Below, in pieces: positions 1 to 34,167 of a DNA stretch of 34,167 nt. This stretch comes from a virus: IMG/VR virus record IMGVR_UViG_3300000116_000002, positions 1 to 34,167 of that record. One strand, written 5' to 3'. A program made the translations under genes and the position numbers. How positions within the stretch are numbered: the stretch's first letter is position 1; the number at the start of each line of letters is the position of its first letter. The notes beneath the pieces are model-generated. The model saw only the letters and a program-made list of their open reading frames with translations. It made no database searches and was not told where the DNA came from.

Positions 1-105
1 CTCATCCATAGCGTCATCAAACACTTTTTCCATTTCAGCAACTCTTTCAGCAAGATTGTTGCCGTTAAAAGCGTCATCAAACTCTGGTATGTATTGGAAT
101 CTAAT
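1..105. repeat. Terminal direct repeat, copy 1 (identical to 34063..34167); circular-closure overlap
   Basis: Direct reading: ctcatccatagcgtcatcaaacac...gtattggaatctaat occurs at both window ends. Confidence 0.95.
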
Positions 106-2661
106 TCCTGTCAGGGCAGCTGTTGGTTCATTTCCTAACGCTTGAACGCTTGCCCGATCTGCCTGTCTTGCATCAGTGATGAATGTAAAACCATCCACGC
201 CTTTGTCTTGCAATATTTTTAAAATGTTTTCTGCAAAATTTACGTCTTGCCTGTCTCTGAAATATATTTCAACACCAGGTCTTGCATTAGCCGCGCCATC
301 TGGCACCACTTTTGAGACAAACACAGCGTCTTGATCATATTTACGCCCAGCCTCAACAATAGCATTTGTCATGTCTGTTGGGTCAAAATCAACCTGAGTA
401 ACGACTTCAAAATTCAAATTTCTTTCTCTGTCACCAGCAAACCCGCCAATAGATGGATTAGCTTGAACGCCAATCATCTTATCATCTTTTAATACTGGCG
501 CTAAAACTTCTTGCGCTAATTCATTTTGTTCAATGTTTGTTGGCACCATATCGGGGCGCTGTCTTGAAATACCAGCAGTAAAGCGCTGTGGCGCGCCCTC
601 TAGTGTGACTAGCTCTGCTTGGGCATCTGCTATTTGCTGTGGGGTGCTGCCTTTTTTGTTTATCACAGACCTTAGCTGTGCCACTCTTTCGCGATTAGCT
701 GAGCCGCCATAGACTGATTCATAGTCTAATGACCCGCCCTCGCCAGCTTTTGTTGTCCAGCCGTTCTTTGTCCACTTTTCTTTTTCTAAGAACCAAACAA
801 CAGCTTGCAAATCATCAGGGCCGATATCGCCAAGCTCAGGATTGACCTCTTTTATAATACCACTTGCATTTAGCTCGGCGGCTGCTTCAGAAAACACCTC
901 TTGTCCGAAACCAAATTCTGCACCTATTTGCGGGTCGTCAAATGTAGATTTTGTCAGATGTTTGCCGGAAACAGCTTTTTCTGCCGGCGGTGGTATGCGA
1001 GGCAAACCAGCAGCATCGCGCAGGAATCTAGCAGCCCACACATCAATGGTTGCTTCGTTGCCAAATCCAATCAAATTGCCGGTAAAGTTAATAGTTTTCG
1101 GCGCTTTATCTTTTTTGATCTGTCTAAACATATCAAGCAGCGCTTCTGTAGCTGCTGGGCTGTTGGTGTTGAATAATGCGCCTGATGCTTTGGTAATTAG
1201 CTTAAATGGGCTGTTTTCATCTTTGTGCAGTATGTTTAATTCTTTGCTGCTTAAAGTATCTCCAGACTCAATTCTGGCAGTATATATAGCGATTTCTTCA
1301 TCGAACTCGCCGCGTGAGAATCTTCTTAATACTTGCAACGCATTATCATAATTTTGTTGCACATTTGTTTGTGCTGACGTTGCGCCAATGATGTCTGCGA
1401 AAACATCAGCCAAGCCCCCAAATTCTTGACGCAGCCTAGTACGCATTGAGCGATACCAGTTAGCCTGATTGATAATTTCTATTGCGGCTGTGTCACCGTT
1501 TTTTGCACGTTCAACGATGTTGGCAACGTCCGATACGGTAACATCAACCAAATTTTGTTTATGCGCTGCCACTTGTGCTTTGCCGGCAGCGCCTTTTAAT
1601 TTTTCGCCTGGCGGAATGTGAAACGCATATGCCGGTTGTTGCCAATTAATTTCTAAACCGCCATCTTTATCAACTTTAAAAGTTGGCGTCCTTTTTGATG
1701 GATCTTTGATATTTTCGCCAGTTTGCACATTAATAGGCAACCAGCCATCCTCGGCCGGGTACTCATTCTTTATACGTTCAGCCTCAGTCACAACATCTTT
1801 CAATATTGCAGGGGCTGCTCCTTTTTTTGGTTTTTGATTTGCTACGTCTGTTTTTATAAGGTCACGCTCAGTTTTGTTGAGCTTCACAATGCGTTTTAAT
1901 GTTTGTGACGGCGAGCCCTCAGCATCTGATGATATCAAGGGCGTTGCCCCTACAGCTGTGGCAATGGTGTTTGTTGCATAACGTAAAAAAGTGGGGTTGT
2001 TTTTGATTAATCGCAGGGTTCCGATTATACCGTCAAACGCCAAACCAAGAGCCCCGCCCTGTACGCCAAGCCCGGCCCTGCTTCTAAGCCGCTCAAGCAC
2101 GGTATCTTCTTCTGATGACTCAACAGCCAAAAACTCAACAGCTTGCGGCAAAATGCCAAGGTCAATCAATGGCCGGATAAAACCACCTTCTTTGGGATCA
2201 AAGTACCCGCCCTCTGCCAGTGCAGATTTTCCGGCTATTCTAAGCGGCGTTGCAGCACCAGCGCCGGGCGTCATAACCATGCCAACACCGAACTGCACAA
2301 AGTCTCTAGCCAGCTGCCCTATCATCCCCTCTGGCTCTGGTATATCTGCCAAGCGTGATGGCGGCACCTTTACTTGTAATCGTTGGTTGGCAAGCGCGGC
2401 AGCCGGGCCAAAGAAACCAGCCTCTAACAGATCAGAACCTGTTTCCATACCAACATTTGCCGCATCAACAGCACCGCCAAGCCCAACATTGTAGGCAGCA
2501 CTTTTAAGTTGCTTGCTGACATTTTCGCCAGCTTCCTCAAGCTCGCTGATAGGCGTTCCCATGACTTCTATTTCTGGTTCAGGCTTTTTGATCGAGCCCA
2601 TGAGATAGCGCTGTGCATCAGCTGCGTCGTAGGCGTTTAGCTGTTCTGATTCGTAATCCAA
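1..2661 (-). CDS. Large virion (internal/ejection-type) protein, N-terminal 887 codons; continues across the circular junction to stop TAG at 33868 (951 aa in total)
   Basis: I translated the minus strand by hand from TTG 2661. A GAGGGA Shine-Dalgarno lies 6 nt upstream, and an alternative ATG is at 2601. The frame is open to base 1 and is in frame with the MEKVFDDAMDE ORF listed at 33868..34095. The ORF track omits it because it runs off the window edge. It sits among internal virion protein genes. Confidence 0.8.
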   Translation of the reverse strand, partial: MDYESEQLNAYDAADAQRYLMGSIKKPEPEIEVMGTPISELEEAGENVSKQLKSAAYNVGLGGAVDAANVGMETGSDLLEAGFFGPAAALANQRLQVKVPPSRLADIPEPEGMIGQLARDFVQFGVGMVMTPGAGAATPLRIAGKSALAEGGYFDPKEGGFIRPLIDLGILPQAVEFLAVESSEEDTVLERLRSRAGLGVQGGALGLAFDGIIGTLRLIKNNPTFLRYATNTIATAVGATPLISSDAEGSPSQTLKRIVKLNKTERDLIKTDVANQKPKKGAAPAILKDVVTEAERIKNEYPAEDGWLPINVQTGENIKDPSKRTPTFKVDKDGGLEINWQQPAYAFHIPPGEKLKGAAGKAQVAAHKQNLVDVTVSDVANIVERAKNGDTAAIEIINQANWYRSMRTRLRQEFGGLADVFADIIGATSAQTNVQQNYDNALQVLRRFSRGEFDEEIAIYTARIESGDTLSSKELNILHKDENSPFKLITKASGALFNTNSPAATEALLDMFRQIKKDKAPKTINFTGNLIGFGNEATIDVWAARFLRDAAGLPRIPPPAEKAVSGKHLTKSTFDDPQIGAEFGFGQEVFSEAAAELNASGIIKEVNPELGDIGPDDLQAVVWFLEKEKWTKNGWTTKAGEGGSLDYESVYGGSANRERVAQLRSVINKKGSTPQQIADAQAELVTLEGAPQRFTAGISRQRPDMVPTNIEQNELAQEVLAPVLKDDKMIGVQANPSIGGFAGDRERNLNFEVVTQVDFDPTDMTNAIVEAGRKYDQDAVFVSKVVPDGAANARPGVEIYFRDRQDVNFAENILKILQDKGVDGFTFITDARQADRASVQALGNEPTAALTGIRFQYIPEFDDAFNGNNLAERVAEMEKVFDDAMDE

Positions 2662-2663
2662 TG

Positions 2664-4490
2664 CTAATCCCTCAACAGTTTTTCATAGCTTTTAATTGTT
2701 TGCACTACGCCGAGCGTCAAAGGATTTTGCGGATCTGACTGTAATCGTTGTTGCAAAAATACTTTTGCGGCTTCGATATCTGAAGGCAACCCCGGCATCG
2801 TTCTTTGTTGGCCTAGTATATAAGACGTAAGCGCTTCGCCCATCATCTGTTTATATTCGACATCATTAGCGGCTATAATCTCACGCGCTTTCTTTACTGT
2901 TTCCTGATAGGTTGCCCCAGCCCCCTCACCTACAGTGTTCAGCCAATCATCGAGTTCAAACATACTTTGCTGGTACATAGCGTCAGACGCATCACCCAGC
3001 GCATTGTTACTGTCTTTAAACTCATTATATCGCAGTCTGCTTCCGATTAAGCCCTTTGCGGCTGTGCGGCCTTCTTTGCCTTCCGTGATAGCGCGCTTAA
3101 AATATGCGTTATAATCAGTCGTTGATAACTTATCTGCAAACGTATCAACCAAGGCCACAGTCAGAGTGTTGTCGTTATCAGCTTTATTTAAAGCTCTGAC
3201 AGCATCTTTGCTGGTTTTGATATCAGTGCCGGCTGTAGTTTTCTGTAGACCCAGCCTTTTCTCAGCTGCGTTGCGCTCTGATGCTGTATAAAAATTATCT
3301 TTTAGCAATTCTTTGTGCAGCGCTTTTGCAGCGGTCATTGCTTCTGCATCAGCTGTATCAACATTGATGATTGTCTGAAAATTCTTTTTGTTTTCTTCGT
3401 CTGCCGCTTCTTCATCGGCCTCTTCTTTTTCGCGTCGTTCTGTGTCTATTTTGTTGCCTAGCGTGAACATGTCACTAATTAGTTTGACTTGATCGCCGGC
3501 ATCCATTTGGTTGATCACTGATTGCATCACGGGATCTTGTATGTCGCCTTGAGCAATTTGTAAGACAACCGCTTCAGCAGATGGCGCCTCAGTCATTACG
3601 CCTAAAAACGTCTGACGCACTGTGTCATCAGCTGCGGCACGTTTTCTTTTCTCACCCTCATCAGCTGTGATGGTGTTGTTGGTTACCGCTTTGTTAATGT
3701 CAGCGACCAAATCTGTGTAAGCGGTTGTCCGTTCCTGCACTGTGCGATTACGCACATCGCCGGCAATATTTACCCGCTTGTTTGTGTTGCTCTCCAGTAT
3801 TGCAGCATCGGCTTTCTGGGCTCGATCACGCACTGATACAAAAGCGGCTCTTGATAGTTTTGCAGCTTCAGACTCTTTTATATATCCATCCGCTGCCATT
3901 TGCTCATAATGACCGACTATATTTTTTGATGGATCGCCAAACAATTTTTCGTTTGCGATAGTTCGTTGGGCTTGGTTGCCCATCACAATGTCGTCCATTA
4001 GCTCATCAGCTTTGCGAAACCCGTTAGCCTTGTTTTGATCAATCAGCCGGTTTCGGGCGCCTTGGTTGACGTTTATCGTAAATGTATTGAGGCTGTCGCG
4101 CGCATTTTTTTGAAAAGCTCGACGCACACGCTTGTCATCGATGTTAGCTAAAATGTTGTTAATTTTTTGTTGACCAAGCGAAGCAAACCCCTGTGTGCCT
4201 TTATTTGGCTGGTCATATAGAACATCGTTAGGTGTTCGAGTTGTTTGCTGTTGTTCTAGCTGTTGCAGCTCTTGTTTTAGCTCAAACTCAGCATCATCCA
4301 GCTCAGACTGTCTTTTGATCTTTTGTTCATTTGCATAATAATCAACAGCTAGTTTTTCAGCTGCCGACACAAATTCACCAGCAGCGCGCAATCCGGCAGA
4401 CAAAGCGCCGGGGTTGGCTTGCACACTAAACATGGTAGCGCCAGTTTTTTCTGTTACAGCTGTTTGCTGTCTGTATGTTGGCACTTTCAT
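2664..4490 (-). CDS. Internal virion / ejection protein (T7 gp15-like position), coiled-coil rich, 608 aa
   Basis: Long ORF whose start abuts the stop of the upstream ORF. Composition is rich in Gln, Glu, Ala and Lys and looks helical. The call rests on its place in the T7-type structural gene order. Confidence 0.65.
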   Translation of the reverse strand: MKVPTYRQQTAVTEKTGATMFSVQANPGALSAGLRAAGEFVSAAEKLAVDYYANEQKIKRQSELDDAEFELKQELQQLEQQQTTRTPNDVLYDQPNKGTQGFASLGQQKINNILANIDDKRVRRAFQKNARDSLNTFTINVNQGARNRLIDQNKANGFRKADELMDDIVMGNQAQRTIANEKLFGDPSKNIVGHYEQMAADGYIKESEAAKLSRAAFVSVRDRAQKADAAILESNTNKRVNIAGDVRNRTVQERTTAYTDLVADINKAVTNNTITADEGEKRKRAAADDTVRQTFLGVMTEAPSAEAVVLQIAQGDIQDPVMQSVINQMDAGDQVKLISDMFTLGNKIDTERREKEEADEEAADEENKKNFQTIINVDTADAEAMTAAKALHKELLKDNFYTASERNAAEKRLGLQKTTAGTDIKTSKDAVRALNKADNDNTLTVALVDTFADKLSTTDYNAYFKRAITEGKEGRTAAKGLIGSRLRYNEFKDSNNALGDASDAMYQQSMFELDDWLNTVGEGAGATYQETVKKAREIIAANDVEYKQMMGEALTSYILGQQRTMPGLPSDIEAAKVFLQQRLQSDPQNPLTLGVVQTIKSYEKLLRD

Positions 4491-11288: not shown

Positions 11289-12901
11289 TCAGCTGCCTCG
11301 GATGCATCAATGGCTCTGACCATTGGCGCGGCATTGCCAGCAGCCTCGGCTGTTTGCATAAGCTGTTGCTGTTCTGCCATTGCCGCCTGTTGTTCCTGGC
11401 GCTGCGCGCGCAAAATAGCGACTTCCTGATCGCCTCTCACCGCCGTGGCCGGCACTGACAGGATCTTGATCAGGTGACGTGATATGCCGTCGCTGTCCAC
11501 ATAATCCATGATTGACGGATCAAGCTGCGATAGCGGCGTCATTAGCTCTAGCAATCTGGTCATGGACTGTATGTCGCCCTGACGCTGTGCTTTGGCCAAC
11601 GGGCTGACATAGATGATTTCTATGTTTGAGCCGGTCATAAAGTCAGGCGCCGGGGCAAATGCCTTTTGCCGTGACAGGATGCTATATACGCGGGTGATCA
11701 GCGGTTGCAGCAGCTCCTGCGACAATCTTCCAGTCAGAGGGCCAAGCAGTCTCATTTTTTCTTCGGTGCGTTGAACCACCTCGGTGGCCGTCATTTGCGG
11801 CCCGGTGCCTAGTATCAGCTGGTCAACATAGAAAGCCGCACGGATAGCGCCGCGTCGTTGCTCTTCCATGTTAAGCCCCAGCGGGTTGTTTGCCCCTATA
11901 TTTAGTGGCTCAATCTTGTCGCGTGTACCAGATCTATAAAAGTTCAGACCGCCCGGTACTGTCCTGACCGGCAGCATAAAGCCGTCATCCGGCACCAGTA
12001 GCGGCGGGTCTACCTGTTTTTGCGCTGCCCGGATTGTCACTTCCGACATACGGTTTAGCATTTTTATATCTGCTAGCGCTGTCATAGATGGTGACCGGCC
12101 ATAGCCAAGCTCAAAAGAGCTTTTGCTAAAACGCGGCGCCATGTATGGGAACTCATCAAAGCCTGATTCGGACAGCACGACCTTTTGATCAGGCTCGATA
12201 TAGACTGAGGCAAACGGTTTGTTTTCAGCTGTGACCTTGGTTATGTCACGATCATCACGGCTATAGACCGCATGAAGCAATGTGATTTCATCATAGGGAT
12301 TATTCTGCGCGCGTTGCAGTATTTTACTATTGAATTTTTCTTCACCGAATCGGTTCATGGCGGCTCTGGCCGGCATCTTAAACTGGCGATAGACCGTATC
12401 GACCCGCCCTTTATCGTCTTCGGACAGGAAACATTCCTTGATATGGCGTGTACTAAATCTGATCTGTTGCTCGTCGTCTTTATCCACAAACATCACAGCA
12501 GTGCCAAATGTCACCAGATCGAGATATAGCTCGGCAATTTGCTCTTGAAAGTTGGAGCGGTTGAACGCCTGGTACATCACGTCCTCGACGCTTTGCAGCC
12601 ATTCTTTAGCTTCATCGTCGCCGTTCAGCTCATCATCATTATATCTAAGCCCGAACCAGCTGGTTGAGCCGTTGGTCAACATACCATGCAAGGAAGCTGC
12701 TAACAGCTCAGCTGCCAGTATGGCGGTGCCATCAAACACCAGCTCTGAGCGTTTATCGCCGGGAGAGCGGTTTTTTGTGACATCTGCCTTGCGCGGCACC
12801 ACATAGTCAGCAATTTCCTGCCAATGCCCTTCCCATGTCTGGCGCTGCGTTTCTAGCGCGTGGAAGCGTTTGATCAGGATTTGTGCGATTTCATCAGCCA
12901 T
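11285..12901 (-). CDS. Portal (head-tail connector) protein, T7 gp8-type, 538 aa
   Basis: The N-terminus RFHALETQRQTWEGHWQEIADYVVPRK...DGTAILAAELLAASLHGMLT...WF is characteristic of podovirus connectors. The size and position after terL also fit. Confidence 0.85.
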   Translation of the reverse strand: MADEIAQILIKRFHALETQRQTWEGHWQEIADYVVPRKADVTKNRSPGDKRSELVFDGTAILAAELLAASLHGMLTNGSTSWFGLRYNDDELNGDDEAKEWLQSVEDVMYQAFNRSNFQEQIAELYLDLVTFGTAVMFVDKDDEQQIRFSTRHIKECFLSEDDKGRVDTVYRQFKMPARAAMNRFGEEKFNSKILQRAQNNPYDEITLLHAVYSRDDRDITKVTAENKPFASVYIEPDQKVVLSESGFDEFPYMAPRFSKSSFELGYGRSPSMTALADIKMLNRMSEVTIRAAQKQVDPPLLVPDDGFMLPVRTVPGGLNFYRSGTRDKIEPLNIGANNPLGLNMEEQRRGAIRAAFYVDQLILGTGPQMTATEVVQRTEEKMRLLGPLTGRLSQELLQPLITRVYSILSRQKAFAPAPDFMTGSNIEIIYVSPLAKAQRQGDIQSMTRLLELMTPLSQLDPSIMDYVDSDGISRHLIKILSVPATAVRGDQEVAILRAQRQEQQAAMAEQQQLMQTAEAAGNAAPMVRAIDASEAAE

Positions 12902-13204
12902 TTAGCCACCTAGCAGCGTTTTGGATTCTGTAGGCGCATCACCCATCACGCCTTTGGTGCTGGTCATAATGGTGCCTGATTTCTTCTTTTTCTTTTTCTT
13001 TGGGGCGCCGTCTGCCTGTTCGCCGGCATAGATAACCTCATCAGGATTATCCGGCTCTGCCGCATCTACCGGCTCATTCACCGGCTGCTGGCCGCGCATG
13101 GCCGCTTCCTGTTCTTTCTTTGATGGCGCCACGCCCGTTGCTTTTGCCGTTTCTGCAAGCGCTTTAGTAAATGTTTTTCTAATTCTTCTGACCACACCGC
13201 CCAT
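12902..13204 (-). CDS. Small protein with a Lys7 tract and C-terminal ...SKTLLGG; paralogue of the upstream ORF, 100 aa
   Basis: The ORF is coupled on both sides, with a TAATG overlap upstream and the portal ATG directly after its stop. Its C-terminal 30 aa align with the 74-aa ORF. Confidence 0.65.
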   Translation of the reverse strand: MGGVVRRIRKTFTKALAETAKATGVAPSKKEQEAAMRGQQPVNEPVDAAEPDNPDEVIYAGEQADGAPKKKKKKKSGTIMTSTKGVMGDAPTESKTLLGG

Positions 13205-26547: not shown

Positions 26548-29040
26548 CTATCTGGCGTTGCTATATTTTGCAGGGGCTTCGGCAAAGGCGAGGTAGATGT
26601 AGGTATATGTGTTTTCGTTTGTCGCACCATTTGCACTTCTTAGTTCGAAACCATTGCTTAAAAAATCTATCGTTTCTGCGCTTGACGACAATTCGGCGGC
26701 ACCACTATTTGCTCTAAGTTCATTGTCATCTACATTAAACTGACCTCTTACTGAATCACGCAACTGCCAGTTCCATCCGCCGCCGACCGCAGTTTTACCA
26801 ATTAACAAAAACGCTGGCCTAAACCCTGTGTAAACAAACGTGCCATTTGCATTACCGTTGCCGCGATATTTGCCAACGGCCTGATAGCCGGGAACGCTGT
26901 GGAACGCATAAAAAACTAAATCTTCTCCGCTATTGTTTGTATTTTGTGCTGTGCCTACAGAAAACACACTGGTAGTTGGCGCAGTGTCATTCCAATAAGT
27001 TGCCGCATCACCTGCCGCATCAGTTGCGTTTAAAAAAACGTGGTCTGTTTCTGCATCACTGGCAATATATTTATGGTATATAGGCCATTGTGTACCAGCT
27101 TGGGTTCTGCTTTTTACAATTATCATCTCTGGCGCACTAGACAAACCGTGACCAATCGTAGCGTTAGCACCTGTTCCAGTATAAGTTCCTATACTAAACC
27201 CAGCATCGGGTGCAGCCGACACCTGTGACGTAATACTGCCATCTGAATTGCTTGATGCGCTGCCACCAGCTTTCCAGTTCCACGCAACGTATGTGTCACT
27301 CGACCCGTTAGTCGCATCGAATGTGCCATCTGTGCCATCGTCAACAGTAAAGCCATCGCTGTCAAATGACGTTAAACCACCAAAACTTGCTGTTGAAATT
27401 GCACTAGCATTTTCCGCATCTGTGCCATTACTACGCAACACATTGTCTGCACCACGCACACTATCAAATAAAGCATGTGATGCTGTGCCGTTTCTCGTTT
27501 TAATCCAAGTCCAATCCGGCTGAAAACCAACGCCAGTTATTGCGTTGGACGAGGAGCCGTCACCCGTATAAAGCACCGTATTAAAGTAATCGTCAGCCTG
27601 TTCCGCGCTGTTCGGGCCGATGGTTGGTTCTGGTAGGTTGGCTGAACACAACGATTTGTAACCAGATGGCACAGAATACTTGAAGTCACCGTAGCCATTA
27701 GCATCGGTGTTGCCGCCAGCCGTTACTGCACCGGCAAAAGTGCTGTCCTGACCATAGTTGGTTGAAAGGGAAAGAGTGCTGTTTATTGACACCGCTGGAA
27801 CATATTGCCCCGTCAGCCCAGTTGCGGCGGCAGTACCAGAATTTTGTATCGTACCATTTTTGTAAAAATAAAGTGCGCCAGCTTTAACGGCGATTCCAAT
27901 GACATCACCTGTTGTAAAGCTATCACCATAAGAGGAGTCAACGCCACCAGTGCTTTTGCTGCCATTACCTTTGTAGGCAATGCCATCTGATGAGTGAGCA
28001 AAATTGAATGTGGGGTCTGATTGATTAAAGTATATGTTTTGCGGTTTAGATATGCCAAATCTTACTTCAACACCGCCGCTATTTACATACCCTTCCCAGT
28101 ACCATCCGTCTGTATCCTCGACATCGAACAAAAATGTCCCAGCCATATTATCAAAGTTACCGCCAACGCCAACCATCTTTAGGTTGCCTTCGGAGTGCGT
28201 AATGTTAGCTCTCATTGCGCCGTTGTTTGTACACCAATTATTAGTCGGGCTTTCACCGGACATCACATCGCTTGCGGCTAAGTTGTTTGCAGTCCAGTCA
28301 TTATTATTGCCAGACACATCGTTACCTATATTCGCGCTATCTGCAAAATCTAGGTGATAACCATTAACACCGTGACTGGTTGTGCCGTTGTCAACGTATT
28401 GCTTTGGCACCCATATACCATTCACTTCTTCAGCAAAATCAGTCGGTGACAATGCCTGACCGTCAACCATATGGATTTCAGCCATATAACCATTAAAATA
28501 TCGGGAATATGCAGAAACGTAACGACCCCATCTTTGTTCTTGACCATTTGTGTTTACAGAAGCCATTACGCTGTTTAGACTCGGAAATGTTCCGGTATAG
28601 TCTGTTTGTTGTGTGCCATTTACATAGACTTTAACACGATCTGTATCTGTAGATTGTGTGGTGTCATATACAACAAGAAAATGATACCAAGCACCGCGAT
28701 CTCGATATAGTCTTGGAGATGTTGGATTTGCGCCACCGTTTTGCGTGTATATTTCAAAATCATCATCTGTACCAAAAGCATAAGTGTTGTGACCCTGACC
28801 AGTTCCACTTCCAGTGTTTTTTGATGAAAATACAGTCCGAAAATCTCCACTGCCTTGTGCCAGTTTAATCCATACAGAAAAAGTATATTTCTTGTTGTCT
28901 GTTCCATTTGACGACGGAGTAAAACTTAAATACGCACTATCCGCTTCTTCAAATCGCAAAGACTGGTCAATGCTGTATGAGTAAAACCCAGCCGCCCCAC
29001 TTGAATACATCCATTGGCTTGAACCTATTGGCCCTGACAT
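26548..29040 (-). CDS. Tail fibre / receptor-binding protein with an N-terminal LamG (concanavalin-like) domain and three C-terminal repeat modules, 830 aa
   Basis: The segment WYHFLVVYD...VKVYVNGTQ...F.GYMAEIHMVDG has a LamG-type pattern. Three roughly 100-aa modules share Y.G.G.....G.GF.P......K.R, and two of the three continue with DSVRG. The gene follows the 466-aa fibre gene. Confidence 0.65.
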   Translation of the reverse strand: MSGPIGSSQWMYSSGAAGFYSYSIDQSLRFEEADSAYLSFTPSSNGTDNKKYTFSVWIKLAQGSGDFRTVFSSKNTGSGTGQGHNTYAFGTDDDFEIYTQNGGANPTSPRLYRDRGAWYHFLVVYDTTQSTDTDRVKVYVNGTQQTDYTGTFPSLNSVMASVNTNGQEQRWGRYVSAYSRYFNGYMAEIHMVDGQALSPTDFAEEVNGIWVPKQYVDNGTTSHGVNGYHLDFADSANIGNDVSGNNNDWTANNLAASDVMSGESPTNNWCTNNGAMRANITHSEGNLKMVGVGGNFDNMAGTFLFDVEDTDGWYWEGYVNSGGVEVRFGISKPQNIYFNQSDPTFNFAHSSDGIAYKGNGSKSTGGVDSSYGDSFTTGDVIGIAVKAGALYFYKNGTIQNSGTAAATGLTGQYVPAVSINSTLSLSTNYGQDSTFAGAVTAGGNTDANGYGDFKYSVPSGYKSLCSANLPEPTIGPNSAEQADDYFNTVLYTGDGSSSNAITGVGFQPDWTWIKTRNGTASHALFDSVRGADNVLRSNGTDAENASAISTASFGGLTSFDSDGFTVDDGTDGTFDATNGSSDTYVAWNWKAGGSASSNSDGSITSQVSAAPDAGFSIGTYTGTGANATIGHGLSSAPEMIIVKSRTQAGTQWPIYHKYIASDAETDHVFLNATDAAGDAATYWNDTAPTTSVFSVGTAQNTNNSGEDLVFYAFHSVPGYQAVGKYRGNGNANGTFVYTGFRPAFLLIGKTAVGGGWNWQLRDSVRGQFNVDDNELRANSGAAELSSSAETIDFLSNGFELRSANGATNENTYTYIYLAFAEAPAKYSNAR

Positions 29041-29049
29041 AGCAGCCCC

Positions 29050-30450
29050 CTACGCAAACGCCAGTTGAGGCGCACCTAACAGAACACGCCCCGATGCTGC
29101 AACAACATAAGGCACAATGTCTGTCGTGCTTGCGGCTGTAGACAGGGTAAGGCCAGCACCACCAGCAGTCTCATAGTCTGTGCCAAGTGACACAGCCCTG
29201 CCGCCGGTTGAATCTTGAATAAATACAATGAAGCCAGATTGCCCAACTTGTTCTGTCGTTGGATTAGCAAGTGTAACAGCACCTGTTAACGTCAATACAA
29301 AATTTTGATTAGCAGCAAAGTCAAGCGTAACGCTGCCTGTGTTTGATGTGTCTGTATCTGTTGCGCCAATCACAGATTTCTCAAACTCAGCTACTGCGCC
29401 GCCAATTTTTAAGCGGTCATCGGTTGTCTCATCATACTTAATAAACGCATCACTATCTGTACCAAATGACAAGTTCTCATCATCGGGTATAACTTTGTTT
29501 GTAAGGCTTTGTGAAGCCACTGTGCTTACTAACTCACCATCGCCACCGGGCGGCAATGTCAGTGTATTAGTCACTGACGCACTATGCGGCTGTGCCTTGA
29601 CTGTCTGCCCATGACTGTTTGCCTCACAGTTGAACACAACAGTACCGGGGTTTGTATTGCCTTTGACAACAACAGTGCCAGTGCCATTAGGTGCAAGGTC
29701 TATAGTGCCATTAGATGTGGTCACAATATCCTGACCATTCATGTCTAAGTCACCGCCAAGCTGTGGTGTTGTGTCTAGAACTACATCAGATAGACCACCA
29801 CCGGAAGCGCCAGTTGCACCAGTTGCGCCTGTTGCGCCAGCCGGTATACCCAAAGCCAATGCTAAGGCACCGCTAGCAGCTGTGTATGTAGCTGTCGCTG
29901 AAGGTGTTGCGCCAGCTGATAAGCCGGACGCAGATATTGTTACAGTATCTATCTTGCCCTCAGTGACTGTCAGATCACCGCTAGCGTCAAAACTCAACAG
30001 CTTGTTAGCTCGATCAGTAGCCGACGTTGTAAATTCAGACGTGGCAATGACGTTGGTTTGCGACACTTTGAGCGATCTGCCCACAGCTTCATCAAGCTGC
30101 TGCGTGATCATGGTCAGCCGGTCGAGCGCATCTTCATGGCTTTCTGCCGGAAACGGATCGTTGGCAACGTAGTCTGTAGCCTGGGTCAGTGTGAGCTTGC
30201 GTAGGATCACGACAGTCTCGCCAGACGCCGGCACATTCCCGGTGGTGAAAGTCACGTTGCCGCCGCTGTCAGTCCCGGCGCCAGACACTGTGTAATGTGT
30301 CGTCAGCGTCTTGGTTGTTTCAACGCCGGCTGATGATCGGATAATAACCGTCAGATCAGCATCTGCGAATATCTTGAACCCGTAAGCAAACGCGGTTGTG
30401 CTGCCGTTGCCAGAGTAGCTGGCACGGTTGGTCGTCGTTGAAACTGTCAT
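29050..30450 (-). CDS. Tail fibre protein with a short (GAT)n collagen-like stretch, 466 aa
   Basis: The N-terminus NRASYSGNGSTTAFAYGFKIF...DLTVII...HYTV is typical of phage fibre N-terminal domains. A GATGATGATGASGGG stretch is present. Confidence 0.7.
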   Translation of the reverse strand: MTVSTTTNRASYSGNGSTTAFAYGFKIFADADLTVIIRSSAGVETTKTLTTHYTVSGAGTDSGGNVTFTTGNVPASGETVVILRKLTLTQATDYVANDPFPAESHEDALDRLTMITQQLDEAVGRSLKVSQTNVIATSEFTTSATDRANKLLSFDASGDLTVTEGKIDTVTISASGLSAGATPSATATYTAASGALALALGIPAGATGATGATGASGGGLSDVVLDTTPQLGGDLDMNGQDIVTTSNGTIDLAPNGTGTVVVKGNTNPGTVVFNCEANSHGQTVKAQPHSASVTNTLTLPPGGDGELVSTVASQSLTNKVIPDDENLSFGTDSDAFIKYDETTDDRLKIGGAVAEFEKSVIGATDTDTSNTGSVTLDFAANQNFVLTLTGAVTLANPTTEQVGQSGFIVFIQDSTGGRAVSLGTDYETAGGAGLTLSTAASTTDIVPYVVAASGRVLLGAPQLAFA

Positions 30451-33400
30451 TACTGTACCCCTGCTTGTTTCAGCGCATCACGCTCAGCCAGTCTAAGCGA
30501 TAAATCCTGATTACCTGGCTGAGACAACAGCACCGGCAATGCCGCACGATAAAACCGCGCCTCAGCGTTCTTGATCATGCTTTTGCGTCGGTCATCGTCA
30601 GCGCTTGCATAAAGTGGGTGCGCCATCAGGACTTTTAGATAATCTCTGAACGGGTATACCGCCGGGCCTTGCTGCCTATCGCCTCTGGTTGTCACCATCG
30701 TCAAAGGCAACGCCACATCATTTTTAGCAATTCTGGTCAGCTCGCCCCGATTGCGCTCACTGAGCGACACACCCATGATTTTCTTTTTGTCGCGGCTTTC
30801 TGTCAGCGGCGCACCCAGTCTAATTAGCTCACGGTGATATGGCTCGACATCCTCGCCATAGGCCAGCTTAAACGGCGTGACGCTAGACCAGACAGCTGCC
30901 ACCGGGTTGATGTCAAATCTCAGCCCTTTGGTTTTCTGTTCGCCCAGCATATCGTATTGAAACGCATAATTTTCTTCTATCTTATTGACATACGGAATGT
31001 TCATTACTTGCTGTTCCCAGCCCCAAGCCACTTGCTCATAGAACATTTTTGACCAGCTGGCGTCCTGCCAGTTTTTCACAGTGCCAACCAAGCTATATGG
31101 CACTTTTGAATATGGGTTGTCCGTGCCTTGGCTCTCATCATAAAGTCGTTGCACATCTTCAACGCTGTAATATTGATAGGGCTGATCGACCTTTTTCTTG
31201 GCGTTGCCCCCGGTCAGTTTTTCTACATTTCTGACAACCGCAGAAAACGGAACAGGAAAAATAGCAACAGTCCCACCCATAAACCCGTCAGTGATCATGC
31301 TAGGGTCTTCGTATTGGAACGCCTTGTATATGGTGCCGATACCCTGTAACATCGGCAGATCGCGGAAATATTCCATGGTTGCCATCGTCGCCGCGCTAAG
31401 TAGATTTAGCCGGTCTTCTGGGTCAACAAACATTGTCTGATGCCGAGCCGTGCTAGCAGCTATGCCAACAAACGCGCTAACCGGCTCCAGTCCTTGATAA
31501 CTAATGTATGCCAGCTCACCATTGGGCAAGCCTGTCTCTTTGTTATAAAGAGGCAACGGATCGCCGTCAGCGTCTACTGGGAAATCACCCGCGCGAAACA
31601 CAAAGCTATAAGGTTGCCACTTAGGCGGCAGCATCCTTTGCAACTGCTTATCTACTGGATAAGACCCCGTAACACGTCCATTCAGCGCTAACTGATGGAA
31701 GCCGTACATGGTCATGGTTCCCATTGCCAGTCTGCCATAAGCGCGATCTCTAGCTTGCGGCCCGTTCTTACCAAGTAATGTATCTCTGGTTTTGCTTGAG
31801 CCGGGGTTAAGAGCTAGTACGGCTTGAATCAACGGGTGGCCTTCTGCGTTTATCTTGATTGTATTTGTTGGCGCTTTGGCAAACGGCATGGTCAATTTGC
31901 CAAGCACATTGCCGCGAAACGCATTAGTAAACTTGCCAATGACGCCATCGCCAAGATCGGTCGTCATGGTTGCGTATCGACCAGCTGCATCCATTTCATC
32001 TGTGGCATACTTAGGATCAAGCAAAACCATCATGGCGTCATCCATCGCCTCAGTGTCATCCCGCCCCATATGCTTTGATCTGCGATATGCGCGCACAGAT
32101 TCCTCATACAGTGCGCCTCTTGACGCAATTGTTTTGAATAAATCGTCGGCAAACATAAGACCGCGACCGGGCAGTCGGATTACACGCCCCAAAAAATCAA
32201 CAGCATTGCCTACGCTATTATTGTCAATGTTCAGATTTTCACGATCTATTGCCCTAAAGGTTGCACCCTCAACCTTTTGCAATGGATCAGCCGCTGACTC
32301 GTCAGCAAATCCTTTAGCGGCTAAAGTCCAAGCATCACCGAAAGATTGACCAAAACCATACACACGCGCAAAAACATCCTCAAAATGTACGCCGTCTGGA
32401 TCGGGATCACGCCCAGCTAGTCTGGCGCCAGTGCGAAAAACTGTGCCTACACTTGCAGACATAAGGTCAGTCAGCACGTTGTAGGTCATAAACAACGGAG
32501 TGCCTAAGCCGTTTTTGATTTGTGTAGGAAAATAGGAAAGCAGCCCATTCATATAGACTTCCATCCATACGCCCTCTATTTTCTGGCTCCACGCGCCGGC
32601 TGTGTATTTATTAGCGTTAACCTGGCCACCTTCTGCCAAGGCGTCGAGATATCCCTTGGCCATTTTCTTGACAAGCCCGGCGCCGCCAGAATCAGTCAGG
32701 ATAGCATCCATCACATCAGCTGGCACTTGGGTGCCGACGGGTATCTTAAAGGCTTGCATAGCTCTGGCTATCTCTGTCTGCGCGCCCTTGGCTTTCATCT
32801 GTATCCCAGCATGAATTGACATCTGCCGTCTAAAATCGACCATAGCTTTCGGACTGGCTAGACCGCTTTGTATCTGAACGGCCATTTCCTGCAACTTAGC
32901 ACCAGATCTTTGCAGCAAGATCCTAAGCGCAGTCATTTCTTCAGCGTTTAGAGCTTTGCCTGACTGTTTGCGTAAAATGCTTCTGGTAAAACCAACCTCA
33001 TCAGCAAGCAGCTCGCCAGCGTTTGCCAGCGTTTCTTGGTTGGTAACAATGCCACGTTTTTCTGCTTCTATGGGGTCTTTGATAATATCTGACATTGCGT
33101 TGACAACGCGGTTGATGTCTTCGCCGCCTTCGAAATTGTCGAAATTAAAATCAATGCCGTCTTTGCCTTGCACATTGCTACTGATCAAATCACGGGCATC
33201 TTTATTTATCTGCGGAACATCATCAGCAAACTTTTCGTATTTGCTTTTAACAACTGGATCAGCCCCACCAATAGACATTTGGGCTTTTTGAGTGACTTGC
33301 TCATTATTCGGCAGCTCTGGTTTGACTGGCTCGAACAGATCCGGCTGATCAGCCAGCTCACGTTCTGTGGGCGTTGCAATAGCAGTCCGTGCGTCACCGC

Positions 33401-33707
33401 CAGATGCTTCTAGCCGAGCCTGGCCTTCTGGCGATAGCGCGTCCTTAGCAAGCGCCTCTTGTGTTGCTTGCCTTGTTGTCCCTTCTGGCGCAATGCCCTC
33501 GGTGATAGGCTCAGCAACGCGGCCAGCCACGCCGCCCTCTAGTGTTTCACGCGCTGTGCCGGGTGCAGCTTTTGCTGATTGCTGCAATAGTTTTTGCAAA
33601 AACCCAGCAGTCTGGATGCCCTCATCGACCTGGGGTTGCGTGTCGGCGAATTGCGTCACGCCCCCGGTGCGTAGCGCACGGGCTGCTTGTTGTGCTGGTG
33701 TTGCCAT
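30450..33707 (-). CDS. Large virion protein (internal/ejection type), 1085 aa
   Basis: Very long ORF with a GGAG Shine-Dalgarno, lying between the 951-aa virion protein and the fibre genes. I recognised no enzymatic motif. Confidence 0.6.
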   Translation of the reverse strand: MATPAQQAARALRTGGVTQFADTQPQVDEGIQTAGFLQKLLQQSAKAAPGTARETLEGGVAGRVAEPITEGIAPEGTTRQATQEALAKDALSPEGQARLEASGGDARTAIATPTERELADQPDLFEPVKPELPNNEQVTQKAQMSIGGADPVVKSKYEKFADDVPQINKDARDLISSNVQGKDGIDFNFDNFEGGEDINRVVNAMSDIIKDPIEAEKRGIVTNQETLANAGELLADEVGFTRSILRKQSGKALNAEEMTALRILLQRSGAKLQEMAVQIQSGLASPKAMVDFRRQMSIHAGIQMKAKGAQTEIARAMQAFKIPVGTQVPADVMDAILTDSGGAGLVKKMAKGYLDALAEGGQVNANKYTAGAWSQKIEGVWMEVYMNGLLSYFPTQIKNGLGTPLFMTYNVLTDLMSASVGTVFRTGARLAGRDPDPDGVHFEDVFARVYGFGQSFGDAWTLAAKGFADESAADPLQKVEGATFRAIDRENLNIDNNSVGNAVDFLGRVIRLPGRGLMFADDLFKTIASRGALYEESVRAYRRSKHMGRDDTEAMDDAMMVLLDPKYATDEMDAAGRYATMTTDLGDGVIGKFTNAFRGNVLGKLTMPFAKAPTNTIKINAEGHPLIQAVLALNPGSSKTRDTLLGKNGPQARDRAYGRLAMGTMTMYGFHQLALNGRVTGSYPVDKQLQRMLPPKWQPYSFVFRAGDFPVDADGDPLPLYNKETGLPNGELAYISYQGLEPVSAFVGIAASTARHQTMFVDPEDRLNLLSAATMATMEYFRDLPMLQGIGTIYKAFQYEDPSMITDGFMGGTVAIFPVPFSAVVRNVEKLTGGNAKKKVDQPYQYYSVEDVQRLYDESQGTDNPYSKVPYSLVGTVKNWQDASWSKMFYEQVAWGWEQQVMNIPYVNKIEENYAFQYDMLGEQKTKGLRFDINPVAAVWSSVTPFKLAYGEDVEPYHRELIRLGAPLTESRDKKKIMGVSLSERNRGELTRIAKNDVALPLTMVTTRGDRQQGPAVYPFRDYLKVLMAHPLYASADDDRRKSMIKNAEARFYRAALPVLLSQPGNQDLSLRLAERDALKQAGVQ

Positions 33708-33714
33708 GAAAACT

Positions 33715-33744
33715 CCAAAGAAAAAGGCGCCCCGAAAGGACGCC
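33715..33744 (-). terminator. Intra-operon rho-independent terminator (probably partial) just upstream of the 1085-aa gene
   Basis: The minus strand reads GGCGTCC-TTTCG-GGGCGCC, a 7-bp stem with one G-U pair. It is followed by TTTTTCTTTGG. Confidence 0.55.
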
Positions 33745-33782
33745 CTACTTTATTTGTTTTTACTATAATTTAGATGCGTTGG

Positions 33783-33968
33783 CTACACGGTTTGTGTAGG
33801 TCGTTTATAACTGCCGGTCACATAGAGATCTTGGCTGGTTTGCCCAGATTTTTTAGCTGCAATCTGCCTACGGAGCTGCTTCACTGAAAAGCTCTCCTCC
33901 GTCTTGCCCCGGCTCAATGCCCGTTCCAGCCTTGCTTCCAAGGTATTCTTCATAACTTGTTCCGCCAT
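33783..33968 (-). CDS. Possible 61-aa basic protein, overlapping the 3' end of the 951-aa gene out of frame
   Basis: A GGAG lies 7 nt upstream of the ATG. The ORF overlaps the larger gene by 101 nt in the +1 frame. Confidence 0.35.
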   Translation of the reverse strand: MAEQVMKNTLEARLERALSRGKTEESFSVKQLRRQIAAKKSGQTSQDLYVTGSYKRPTQTV

Positions 33969-34167
33969 TTATCCACTCCGTACCAGTACGATCCGTGTTT
34001 TTAAACACAGTCGTGTCGTAATATACGACATCTGCATATGTTATGCCATCTATTTCTGCAATCTCATCCATAGCGTCATCAAACACTTTTTCCATTTCAG
34101 CAACTCTTTCAGCAAGATTGTTGCCGTTAAAAGCGTCATCAAACTCTGGTATGTATTGGAATCTAAT
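33868..34167 (-). CDS. C-terminal part of the junction-spanning 951-aa virion protein (same gene as 1..2661)
   Basis: The listed 75-aa ORF (MEKVFDDAMDE...) has no stop upstream of it within the window. Its first 11 codons are the same sequence as bases 1-33. Confidence 0.8.
   Translation of the reverse strand: MRFQYIPEFDDAFNGNNLAERVAEMEKVFDDAMDEIAEIDGITYADVVYYDTTVFKNTDRTGTEWINGGTSYEEYLGSKAGTGIEPGQDGGELFSEAAP
34063..34167. repeat. Terminal direct repeat, copy 2 (identical to 1..105)
   Basis: Direct reading. Confidence 0.95.

Follow-up and report, generated by a model that had tools for sequence, protein, structure and literature searches.

A gene across the circular junction of a marine podovirus-like genome encodes a putative ejection protein with a conserved, exchangeable core

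The window analysed here is the whole of IMG/VR virus record IMGVR_UViG_3300000116_000002 (positions 1 to 34,167; 34,167 nucleotides, nt). A large gene on its minus strand, named ORF951 for the 951 amino acids (aa) of its product, was recovered across the junction of the circular sequence, where a linear track of open reading frames (ORFs) had missed it. From its sequence and gene context, the product is probably an internal virion protein that is ejected into the host and joins an N-terminal adaptor to a conserved core with an effector or hub role, a reading to which we assign a probability of about 0.6. Alignments show that related phages swap parts of this gene by homologous recombination and that the breakpoints coincide with domain boundaries (aa ~250, aa ~690 and the 3' untranslated region). 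The modular internal or ejection proteins and the polyvalent proteins are known kinds, of which ORF951 is a new minimal member. New are a large, highly conserved hub domain that has no structural match and is absent from the cultured phages searched, and a cassette exchange resolved to its breakpoints.

ORF951 is one real gene spanning the junction. On the minus strand the frame is open over 887 codons, from a TTG at 2661 (2661-2659) down to base 1. Bases 1-105 are an exact duplicate of 34063-34167, giving a unit genome of 34,062 base pairs (bp) with a guanine-plus-cytosine (GC) content of 49.3%; read as a circle, the frame resumes at 34062 and closes at a TAG (33870-33868), for a total of 951 aa. 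An independent linear metagenome contig (L022, 7,439 bp) was 100% identical to the window and crossed the junction without interruption, with a single copy of the 105 bp and with ORF951 internal to the contig, which ruled out an assembly artefact at the junction. An in-frame stop at this place, named in an earlier note on this DNA as evidence against a single gene, is absent from the contig, whose frame runs straight through. A protein database entry (P0001) holds the identical 951-aa sequence with the same start and length. The unlisted gene that the earlier note had drawn from TTG 2661 to TAG 33868 is thus borne out by frame, overlap, contig and database entry alike. The Shine-Dalgarno motif proposed for it, GAGGGA, is present at 2673-2668 (minus strand), 6 nt 5' of the TTG. 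It overlaps the end of the upstream 608-aa gene at the final sense codon (2669-2667); the TAG stop of that gene (2666-2664) lies just before the TTG. The gene is missing from the ORF track because ORFs that run off the sequence ends are not listed there. Its parts on the window are the following.

2668..2673, minus strand: Shine-Dalgarno-like GAGGGA (sequence)
1..2661, minus strand: ORF951 coding sequence, codons 1-887 (open frame, P0001, identity to L022)
33868..34062, minus strand: ORF951 coding sequence, codons 888-951 and TAG stop (33870-33868), across the circular junction (circular frame, L022)
34063..34167, no strand: assembly overlap, a copy of bases 1-105 in a circular or terminally redundant contig, with no extra coding (exact match; one copy in L022)

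The late genes around ORF951 follow a T7-like order: tail tube A (196 aa), tail tube B (863 aa), proteins of 147, 149 and 608 aa, ORF951, a protein of 1085 aa and a tail fibre with a T7-type N-terminal adaptor. The 147-aa neighbour matched a PHROG family annotated as 'internal virion protein', as did the 1085-aa neighbour. Because of this order and these neighbours, ORF951 is placed inside an internal-core or ejection-protein cassette. Single-sequence searches of the Protein Data Bank (PDB) with the 608-aa and 1085-aa neighbours gave no match.

30450..33707, minus strand: downstream neighbour, 1085 aa (PHROG 6651 'internal virion protein', E 6e-20)
2664..4490, minus strand: upstream neighbour, 608 aa, presumed internal virion protein by its position, with no family match (location)

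The arrangement recurred in other genomes. Full synteny around the ORF951 homologue was found in seven related loci (L002, L003, L004, L005, L006, L020 and L021), which span a prophage (L004) on a 186-kb contig of a Hyphomicrobiales metagenome-assembled genome (MAG) with 65% GC and a contig with 37% GC. Four further MAG-derived loci were partly syntenic: the core gene lies between tail-tube-B-like and 1085-like or fibre-like genes in L009 and L013, between tail-tube-B-like and 1085-like genes in L010, and between tail-tube-B-like and fibre-like genes in L017. Pelagibacter phage HTVC010P has no ORF951 homologue, and its internal-protein region is shorter and different; no homologue of the 608-, 951- or 1085-aa proteins was detectable in it. 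This phage (locus L007, 11529-16650) has the capsid, portal and tail tube in common with the window. Its internal-protein region is ~2.8 kb shorter, is broken up into small ORFs and leaves a gap of 690 nt unannotated (12335-13027).

An AlphaFold2 model of ORF951 was built from a 108-sequence alignment. Model confidence (predicted local distance difference test, pLDDT) was low for aa 1-256 and ~90 for aa 260-930. The confident part is predicted to consist of a small helix/beta region (aa ~260-356), a helical domain (aa 357-690) and ferredoxin-like alpha/beta units (aa 690-930). Together with the composition and the alignments, the model divides the protein as follows.

1912..2661, minus strand: N-module, aa 1-250, Gly/Ala-rich, acidic (isoelectric point, pI, 4.5), of low AlphaFold confidence and lineage-specific (composition, model, alignments)
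2482..2589, minus strand: hypervariable patch, aa ~25-60 (13-20% identity; 18-aa indel relative to P0002)
1594..1911, minus strand: start of the core, aa 251-356, linker and small helix/beta region with conserved GW (306-307), Y345 and F347 (alignment, model)
592..1593, minus strand: helical core domain, aa 357-690, the most conserved part, with ~70 invariant residues (alignment, model)
1..591, minus strand: C-terminal alpha/beta core domain (ferredoxin-like repeats), aa 691-887 (alignment, model)
33934..34062, minus strand: C-terminal alpha/beta core domain, aa 888-930 (model)
33871..33933, minus strand: acidic C-terminal tail of low confidence, aa 931-951 (composition, model)

The N-terminal 240 aa are rich in Ala (13.3%) and Gly (12.5%), in agreement with the earlier description of a Gly/Ala-rich, hydrophobic N-terminus, but their hydrophobicity is weak and no convincing transmembrane segment was found: the highest 19-residue Kyte-Doolittle mean was 1.31, under the usual transmembrane cut-off of 1.6, and a transmembrane N-terminus was rejected. 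The patch at aa ~25-60 was 13-20% identical in relatives that are 92-98% identical elsewhere (P0002, P0003). The whole protein is acidic (pI 4.7) and contains 0 cysteines in 951 aa. In the sampled family (244-261 members), the N-modules and cores were likewise practically free of cysteine (0.0%). A DNA-binding pilot protein was considered and rejected in view of the strong acidity. About 95 alignment columns were invariant, nearly all of them within aa 385-860 and rich in D/E/K/R/H/S/T/N. They include D390, D423, S429, K522, N525, D540, E561, H568, D616/D617, GEGGS (640-644), E746, E752 and E798, and in the helical domain also R385, W402 and Y403.

Conservation differed strongly between the two parts of the protein. 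Among 173 homologous proteins, about 50 were collinear over all 951 aa at 48-92% identity, and many others aligned only from aa ~230-290 onward and had unrelated N-termini. P0039 and P0040, for example, were 70% identical over aa 227-932 and ~20% identical before. Identities at four loci, one of them a short contig (L001), were determined by tblastn.

ORF951 aa 381-700: L004 55%, L005 79%, L006 73%, L001 85%
Capsid: L004 30%, L005 66%, L006 65%, L001 not on contig
Portal: L004 24%, L005 56%, L006 62%, L001 not on contig
1085-aa protein: L004 27%, L005 31%, L006 52%, L001 32%

In the same searches the N-module was undetectable in all four loci, and the 147-, 149- and 608-aa proteins were undetectable in L001, L004 and L005 and 29-42% identical in L006. 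From these identities, the helical core domain is the best-conserved segment of the virion module, here in a widespread group of marine temperate podoviruses, and the N-module loses similarity in parallel with the small internal proteins.

The core belongs to a large family. A profile search over 1.84 billion representative proteins, clustered at 50% identity, recovered at least 1007 clusters at E <= 1e-3 and 463 at E <= 1e-30, with giant proteins matched down to 1e-130 and beyond. Many of the matches were proteins of 1.5-4.1 thousand aa in which the core is embedded. In 249 proteins with an intact core, its length was 556-821 aa. An N-terminal extension nearly always preceded it (10th percentile 217 aa, median 337 aa), the few shorter ones looking like truncated records, and C-terminal extensions ranged from 0 to 2,422 aa. 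Pfam annotation of 14 giants identified ART-PolyVal (7/14), LPD22 (5/14) and LPD38 (3/14), besides InPase, Zeta_toxin, Acb1, LPD37, AAA_33 and CTP_transf_like, and mid-size relatives add GNAT or LPD23. The core is therefore a constant hub of many giant polyvalent proteins. The relation to polyvalent proteins that the earlier note had suspected is thereby upheld, since the core is homologous to a domain of these giants. PHROG annotation of the neighbours of one giant (P0223) was uninformative on its morphotype. Foldseek searches of the BFVD database with the model gave strong matches (E 6e-39 to 1e-16) to proteins of uncultured phages and weaker ones to entries named as pyrophosphatase-, LPD-, RelA/SpoT- or ART-PolyVal-containing; entries named 'internal virion protein' reached only E 0.17-0.86.

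Part of the core is likely a remote homologue of a Pfam family, DUF7178 (PF23802), as judged from profile matches. ORF951 aa 398-547 matched it with 20.4 bits (E 5e-4), below the gathering threshold of 27 bits. In a 45-sequence subset of the alignment, 31 members matched it at E < 0.01, and the giant P0223 exceeded the cut-off (31.9 versus 27 bits) at the position equivalent to ORF951 aa ~385-547. The DUF7178 model covers ~110-150 of the ~650 core residues; it describes a family without known function, and no mention of it was found in the literature searched.

Searches for a known fold were negative. The fold search that had been suggested for the C-terminal part, carried out with the AlphaFold model and Foldseek, returned no match to a solved structure (best PDB E 0.09). 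With the full model, the resemblances to ferredoxin-like or ACT, chlorite-dismutase, HPPK and SAM-lyase folds in the PDB (E >= 0.09, probability <= 0.66) were rejected as generic. With the helical domain modelled on its own (pLDDT 80), the best PDB match had E 2.2 and a probability of 0.04. A lytic transglycosylase in this domain was rejected too, with no SLT or lysozyme match in Pfam or Foldseek. The PDB sequence search with the 108-sequence profile yielded only spurious TPR matches (E 0.6-1), NCBIfam gave no match to ORF951, and PHROGs gave one weak family of unknown function.

We hypothesize that ORF951, as a late virion-module gene product, would enter the capsid along with the other core proteins and, at infection, would be ejected into the host before the DNA or together with it. 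The N-terminal ~250 aa may act as an adaptor that docks the protein into the phage's own internal core or envelope-crossing apparatus, a role proposed because the N-module co-varies with the internal proteins of the phage. The ~650-700-aa core, helical and ferredoxin-like alpha/beta, could then act early in infection, probably as an enzyme, in a conserved function directed at a target that many hosts share. We tentatively favour such an enzymatic or effector role, at somewhat less than even odds, because the core stays conserved while the phage partners diverge, because many invariant residues are polar and because HTVC010P builds the same type of virion without ORF951. The boldest version, in which the core of ~650 aa is an undescribed enzyme with a fold unseen in solved structures, injected by thousands of uncultured phages and acting on a universal host target, must be regarded as rather doubtful. 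If true, the injected enzyme would define a new early-infection activity in phages from at least the Alphaproteobacteria and apparently other phyla too. It would explain why the core is conserved above capsid and portal, why it forms the centre of giant polyvalent proteins, and why co-circulating phages shuffle its surface patches and whole alleles in the course of an arms race against host defences. Invariant stretches that alternate with hypervariable patches, and swaps of whole alleles, fit an arms-race target, as an interpretation only.

Several observations weigh against this reading of ORF951 as an ejected protein with an effector or hub core. No homologue was found in a cultured phage: tblastn with the whole protein and with aa 300-887 against 50,697 GenBank phage records gave none at E <= 1. 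A megablast search of 12 kb against the GenBank phage records also gave no match, and a plasmid search gave two weak matches of 26% identity that were of no use. No catalytic fold or motif was recognised in ORF951 (Foldseek against the PDB, PDB profiles, NCBIfam, Pfam), nor any effector or enzymatic domain (Pfam, NCBIfam, PHROGs), so that strictly the protein does not count as 'polyvalent'. That the N-module co-varies with the upstream genes is based on a handful of loci. Finally, a core that is the constant element bearing cargo domains fits a carrier or translocation role equally well.

Such a carrier is the alternative that survives best, although we consider it unlikely. Here the core would belong to the ejectosome as a structural or translocation part, like T7 gp15/gp16, and ORF951 would be a carrier without cargo, with effectors hitched on in the giants. 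Its fixed position among internal virion protein genes would follow, as would a constant core with recognised enzymes appended on either side. The large, mainly helical domain without similarity to enzyme folds and the many W/F/G/P residues among the invariant ones, which suggest structural constraint, are also in its favour. However, a part that docks to the phage should diverge with its partners, and aa 381-700 retained 55% identity where portal, capsid and 1085-aa protein were at 24%, 30% and 27%. HTVC010P, with the same capsid, portal and tail architecture, does without ORF951, and Foldseek showed no similarity to T7 or other solved ejection proteins. If the core is a carrier after all, it would explain how polyvalent effectors enter and leave podovirus capsids.

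It has been argued that phage-type polyvalent proteins are packaged into the capsid and enter the host by injection along with the DNA (Iyer, Burroughs, Anand, de Souza, Aravind 2017, J Bacteriol 199:e00245-17; PMC5512222), and the LPD models of Pfam (PF18xxx) derive from the LPD1-40 domains of that study. Like them, ORF951 contains a domain homologous to one in giants that bear ART-PolyVal, InPase, LPD22/23/37/38, Zeta_toxin, Acb1 or GNAT, is encoded in a virion gene context (seven fully and four partly syntenic loci), and is predicted to be packaged and injected. Unlike them, it has no second recognisable activity, where polyvalent proteins combine two or more disparate ones. It also lacks a metallopeptidase, MuF, portal or virion RNA polymerase hub, being made of N-module and core only, and the LPD models of Pfam do not match its core.

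With the T7 core proteins gp14, gp15 and gp16, ORF951 shares a location between tail tube B and tail fibre, a large size, an acidic and partly helical character, and neighbours that match internal-virion-protein PHROGs (families 308 and 6651). In contrast to them, it has no sequence or fold similarity to the solved T7-type core proteins, its cassette contains one additional large gene, and it lacks the lytic transglycosylase domain of gp16 (Pfam, Foldseek). Its core is also far more conserved than is normal for ejection proteins. MuF/SPP1-gp7-type toxins and the N4 virion RNA polymerase likewise join a constant part for virion targeting and a functional part in one polypeptide, with modular exchange between phages, but no MuF or RNA polymerase homology was found in ORF951 (Pfam, Foldseek). 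The polarity is also opposite to that of the MuF toxins, in which a conserved packaging domain is N-terminal and variable cargo C-terminal; in ORF951 the N-terminus is variable and the core constant. On the DUF7178 model, ORF951 itself scores below the gathering threshold, and the model covers a fraction of the core only.

The exchange of gene parts is clearest in the comparison with locus L019, and it offers a clean natural example of cassette exchange within a phage ejection-protein gene, the breakpoints coinciding with limits of domains. In the nucleotide comparison, L019 was 94-100% identical to the window over the 3' end of the 608-aa gene and ~95% identical over ORF951 codons 91-250. From ~1910 through the junction to ~33800 it was only 54-78% identical, and then again 95-100% identical into the 1085-aa gene. 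At the 5' breakpoint, at about nt 1910 (aa ~250), identity dropped from 27/30 to 15/30; at the 3' breakpoint, at about nt 33800 and ~70 nt beyond the stop codon, it returned to 29-30/30.

1..1910, minus strand: exchanged cassette relative to L019, 5' part (nucleotide identity)
33800..34062, minus strand: exchanged cassette relative to L019, 3' part (nucleotide identity)

Since this divergent stretch lies between flanks of 94-100% identity, the C-terminal ~700 aa differ in ancestry from their surroundings. The pattern amounts to a clean replacement, in which the C-terminal ~700 codons were exchanged with a divergent allele of the same core. Sliding windows over the proteins agreed: ORF951 and the L019 protein (P0012) shared 93-100% identity over aa 61-240 and switched at aa ~245 to 13-57%, the replaced C-terminus being the same domain at 56-77% identity. 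Another switch was located at aa ~690, where P0003 and P0005 changed from 93-100% to 47-57% identity and P0004 and P0006 showed the converse; L020 had a breakpoint there too. In L001 the core was 69-85% identical, the downstream gene 32% identical and the upstream gene unrelated.

The earlier note had proposed a chimera, a conserved N-terminal virion-incorporation domain fused to a horizontally acquired, variable C-terminal cargo of about 700 aa. A boundary at aa ~250 and a separate ancestry of the C-terminal part are supported by L019, but what was acquired is an allele of the same core and not an unrelated cargo. L019 with P0012 is also the relative that fits a conserved N-terminus with a divergent C-terminus, the alignment pattern expected from that proposal, and the GC content of the core is the lowest of any equal-sized stretch of the genome. 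The pattern across the family is the reverse: over 173 homologues and 1007 clusters the core was conserved and the N-terminus was replaced or unalignable, which refutes the strong form of the model. The ~50 homologues that are collinear over the full length, a pattern that the earlier note had set against any chimera, speak against it as well, and the low GC content at third codon positions (GC3) of the core recurred in all alleles examined. A conserved N-terminus with cargo that differs between relatives is therefore improbable.

The base composition had been the original indication of a junction within the gene. In the computed profile, the GC break claimed near 1900-2000 was present at that position, but at about half the size (51% versus 44%, rather than 55-65% versus 33-40%). 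In 60-nt lines, GC was 52.1 ± 6.2% in 1981-2661 and 43.8 ± 7.7% in 101-1900 (Mann-Whitney p = 0.004), and each of the ranges quoted earlier held just 27% of the lines. The part encoding aa 1-230 (51.4% GC) was typical of the genome (49.4 ± 3.2% in 690-nt windows), and that encoding aa 231-951 (44.2%) was among the lowest 1% of equal-sized genome windows. With 600-nt windows, the step near 1900 was -0.097 and ranked fifth in the genome, hence it is not unique. The neighbouring 608-aa gene was also low (45% GC, GC3 0.41). At the first, second and third codon positions, GC was 0.64/0.45/0.45 in the N-terminal part, 0.55/0.42/0.38 in aa 241-690 and 0.57/0.38/0.32 in aa 691-940, from which ~60% of the step stems from amino-acid composition (Gly/Ala-rich) and ~40% from synonymous sites. 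A higher GC content in the N-module than in the core was also found in the alleles of L001, L002, L005, L019, L020 and L021, but not in the 65%-GC relative nor in the 37%-GC relative.

The 5' breakpoint relative to L019 coincides with the GC step, which results from the cassette exchange combined with the bias of the N-module towards Gly/Ala codons. That there is no chimerism, and that the step is a by-product of amino-acid composition in a gene with a single history, is highly improbable: the ~60% share of codon positions 1 and 2, the fifth rank and the recurrence of the pattern in every intermediate-GC relative fit it, but the breakpoints at ~1910 and ~33800 between near-identical flanks, the independent ones at aa ~690 and the discordant identities in L001 contradict it.

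The genome as a whole is best explained as a temperate, HTVC010P-like marine podovirus of 34,062 bp in a circular assembly. PHROG matches in the window included portal, major head protein, tail tube A and B, terminase large subunit, tyrosine integrase, an Xre-like repressor and Erf. The capsid was 62-69% identical to those of HTVC010P-type pelagiphages; relative to HTVC010P itself, identities were 68% for the capsid, 59% for the portal and 53% for tail tube A. By shared synteny and core structural genes (terL, portal, capsid, tail tube A/B), the window belongs to the HTVC010P type. Pelagiphages have been assigned with a G+C content of 29-36 mol% as a criterion, and their subgroup II has an integrase and a repressor, like the window (Du et al. 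2021, PMC8477408). With 49.3% GC, the window lies outside this range, and for this reason the host is probably not SAR11.

Some observations on hosts and bins stand beside this assignment. The 49.3% GC and a homologue (P0027) from a Puniceispirillaceae MAG hint at a SAR116-type host; Puniceispirillum marinum has a GC content of ~49%. The only locus found with host flanks was L004/L011 (GCA_027483895.1, JAIXTP010000026.1, ~64-87 kb), a complete-looking prophage of the same phage type in the 186-kb Hyphomicrobiales MAG contig, which is MAG-derived and not from a cultured strain. It encodes an ORF951 homologue (914 aa) and an integrase, and a gene for a separate SLT-domain protein lies upstream of its portal gene. 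Several 'MAG' contigs of 27-40 kb with homologues (loci L009-L018; Nitrosopumilus, Verrucomicrobiota, Flavobacterium) are probably mis-binned phage genomes.

Further observations concern the surroundings of the gene. Between the stop of ORF951 and the start of the 1085-aa gene (minus strand) lies a gap of 160 nt (33708-33867), and a gap of ~160 nt after ORF951 was kept in L002, L020, L021 and L005. The 3' recombination breakpoint (~33800) falls within it. The gap contains a strong terminator-like hairpin (33746-33724; 10 bp, 6 of them GC, followed by a T-run) directly before the GGAG-ATG of the 1085-aa gene, which suggests transcriptional attenuation or a regulatory element within the late operon. 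In the 5' part of the 1085-aa gene, 150 nt at ~33153-33302 were 100% identical to L019 and L002 and 55-57% identical to L020 and L021. This pattern opposes the overall relatedness and suggests another small mosaic patch. An 830-aa virion protein (26548-29040, minus strand) matched Pfam DUF7483 (E 1e-113) and tail-fibre or structural PHROGs; its GC3 of 0.37 is unusually low, as in the core of ORF951, and it may be a recently exchanged module.

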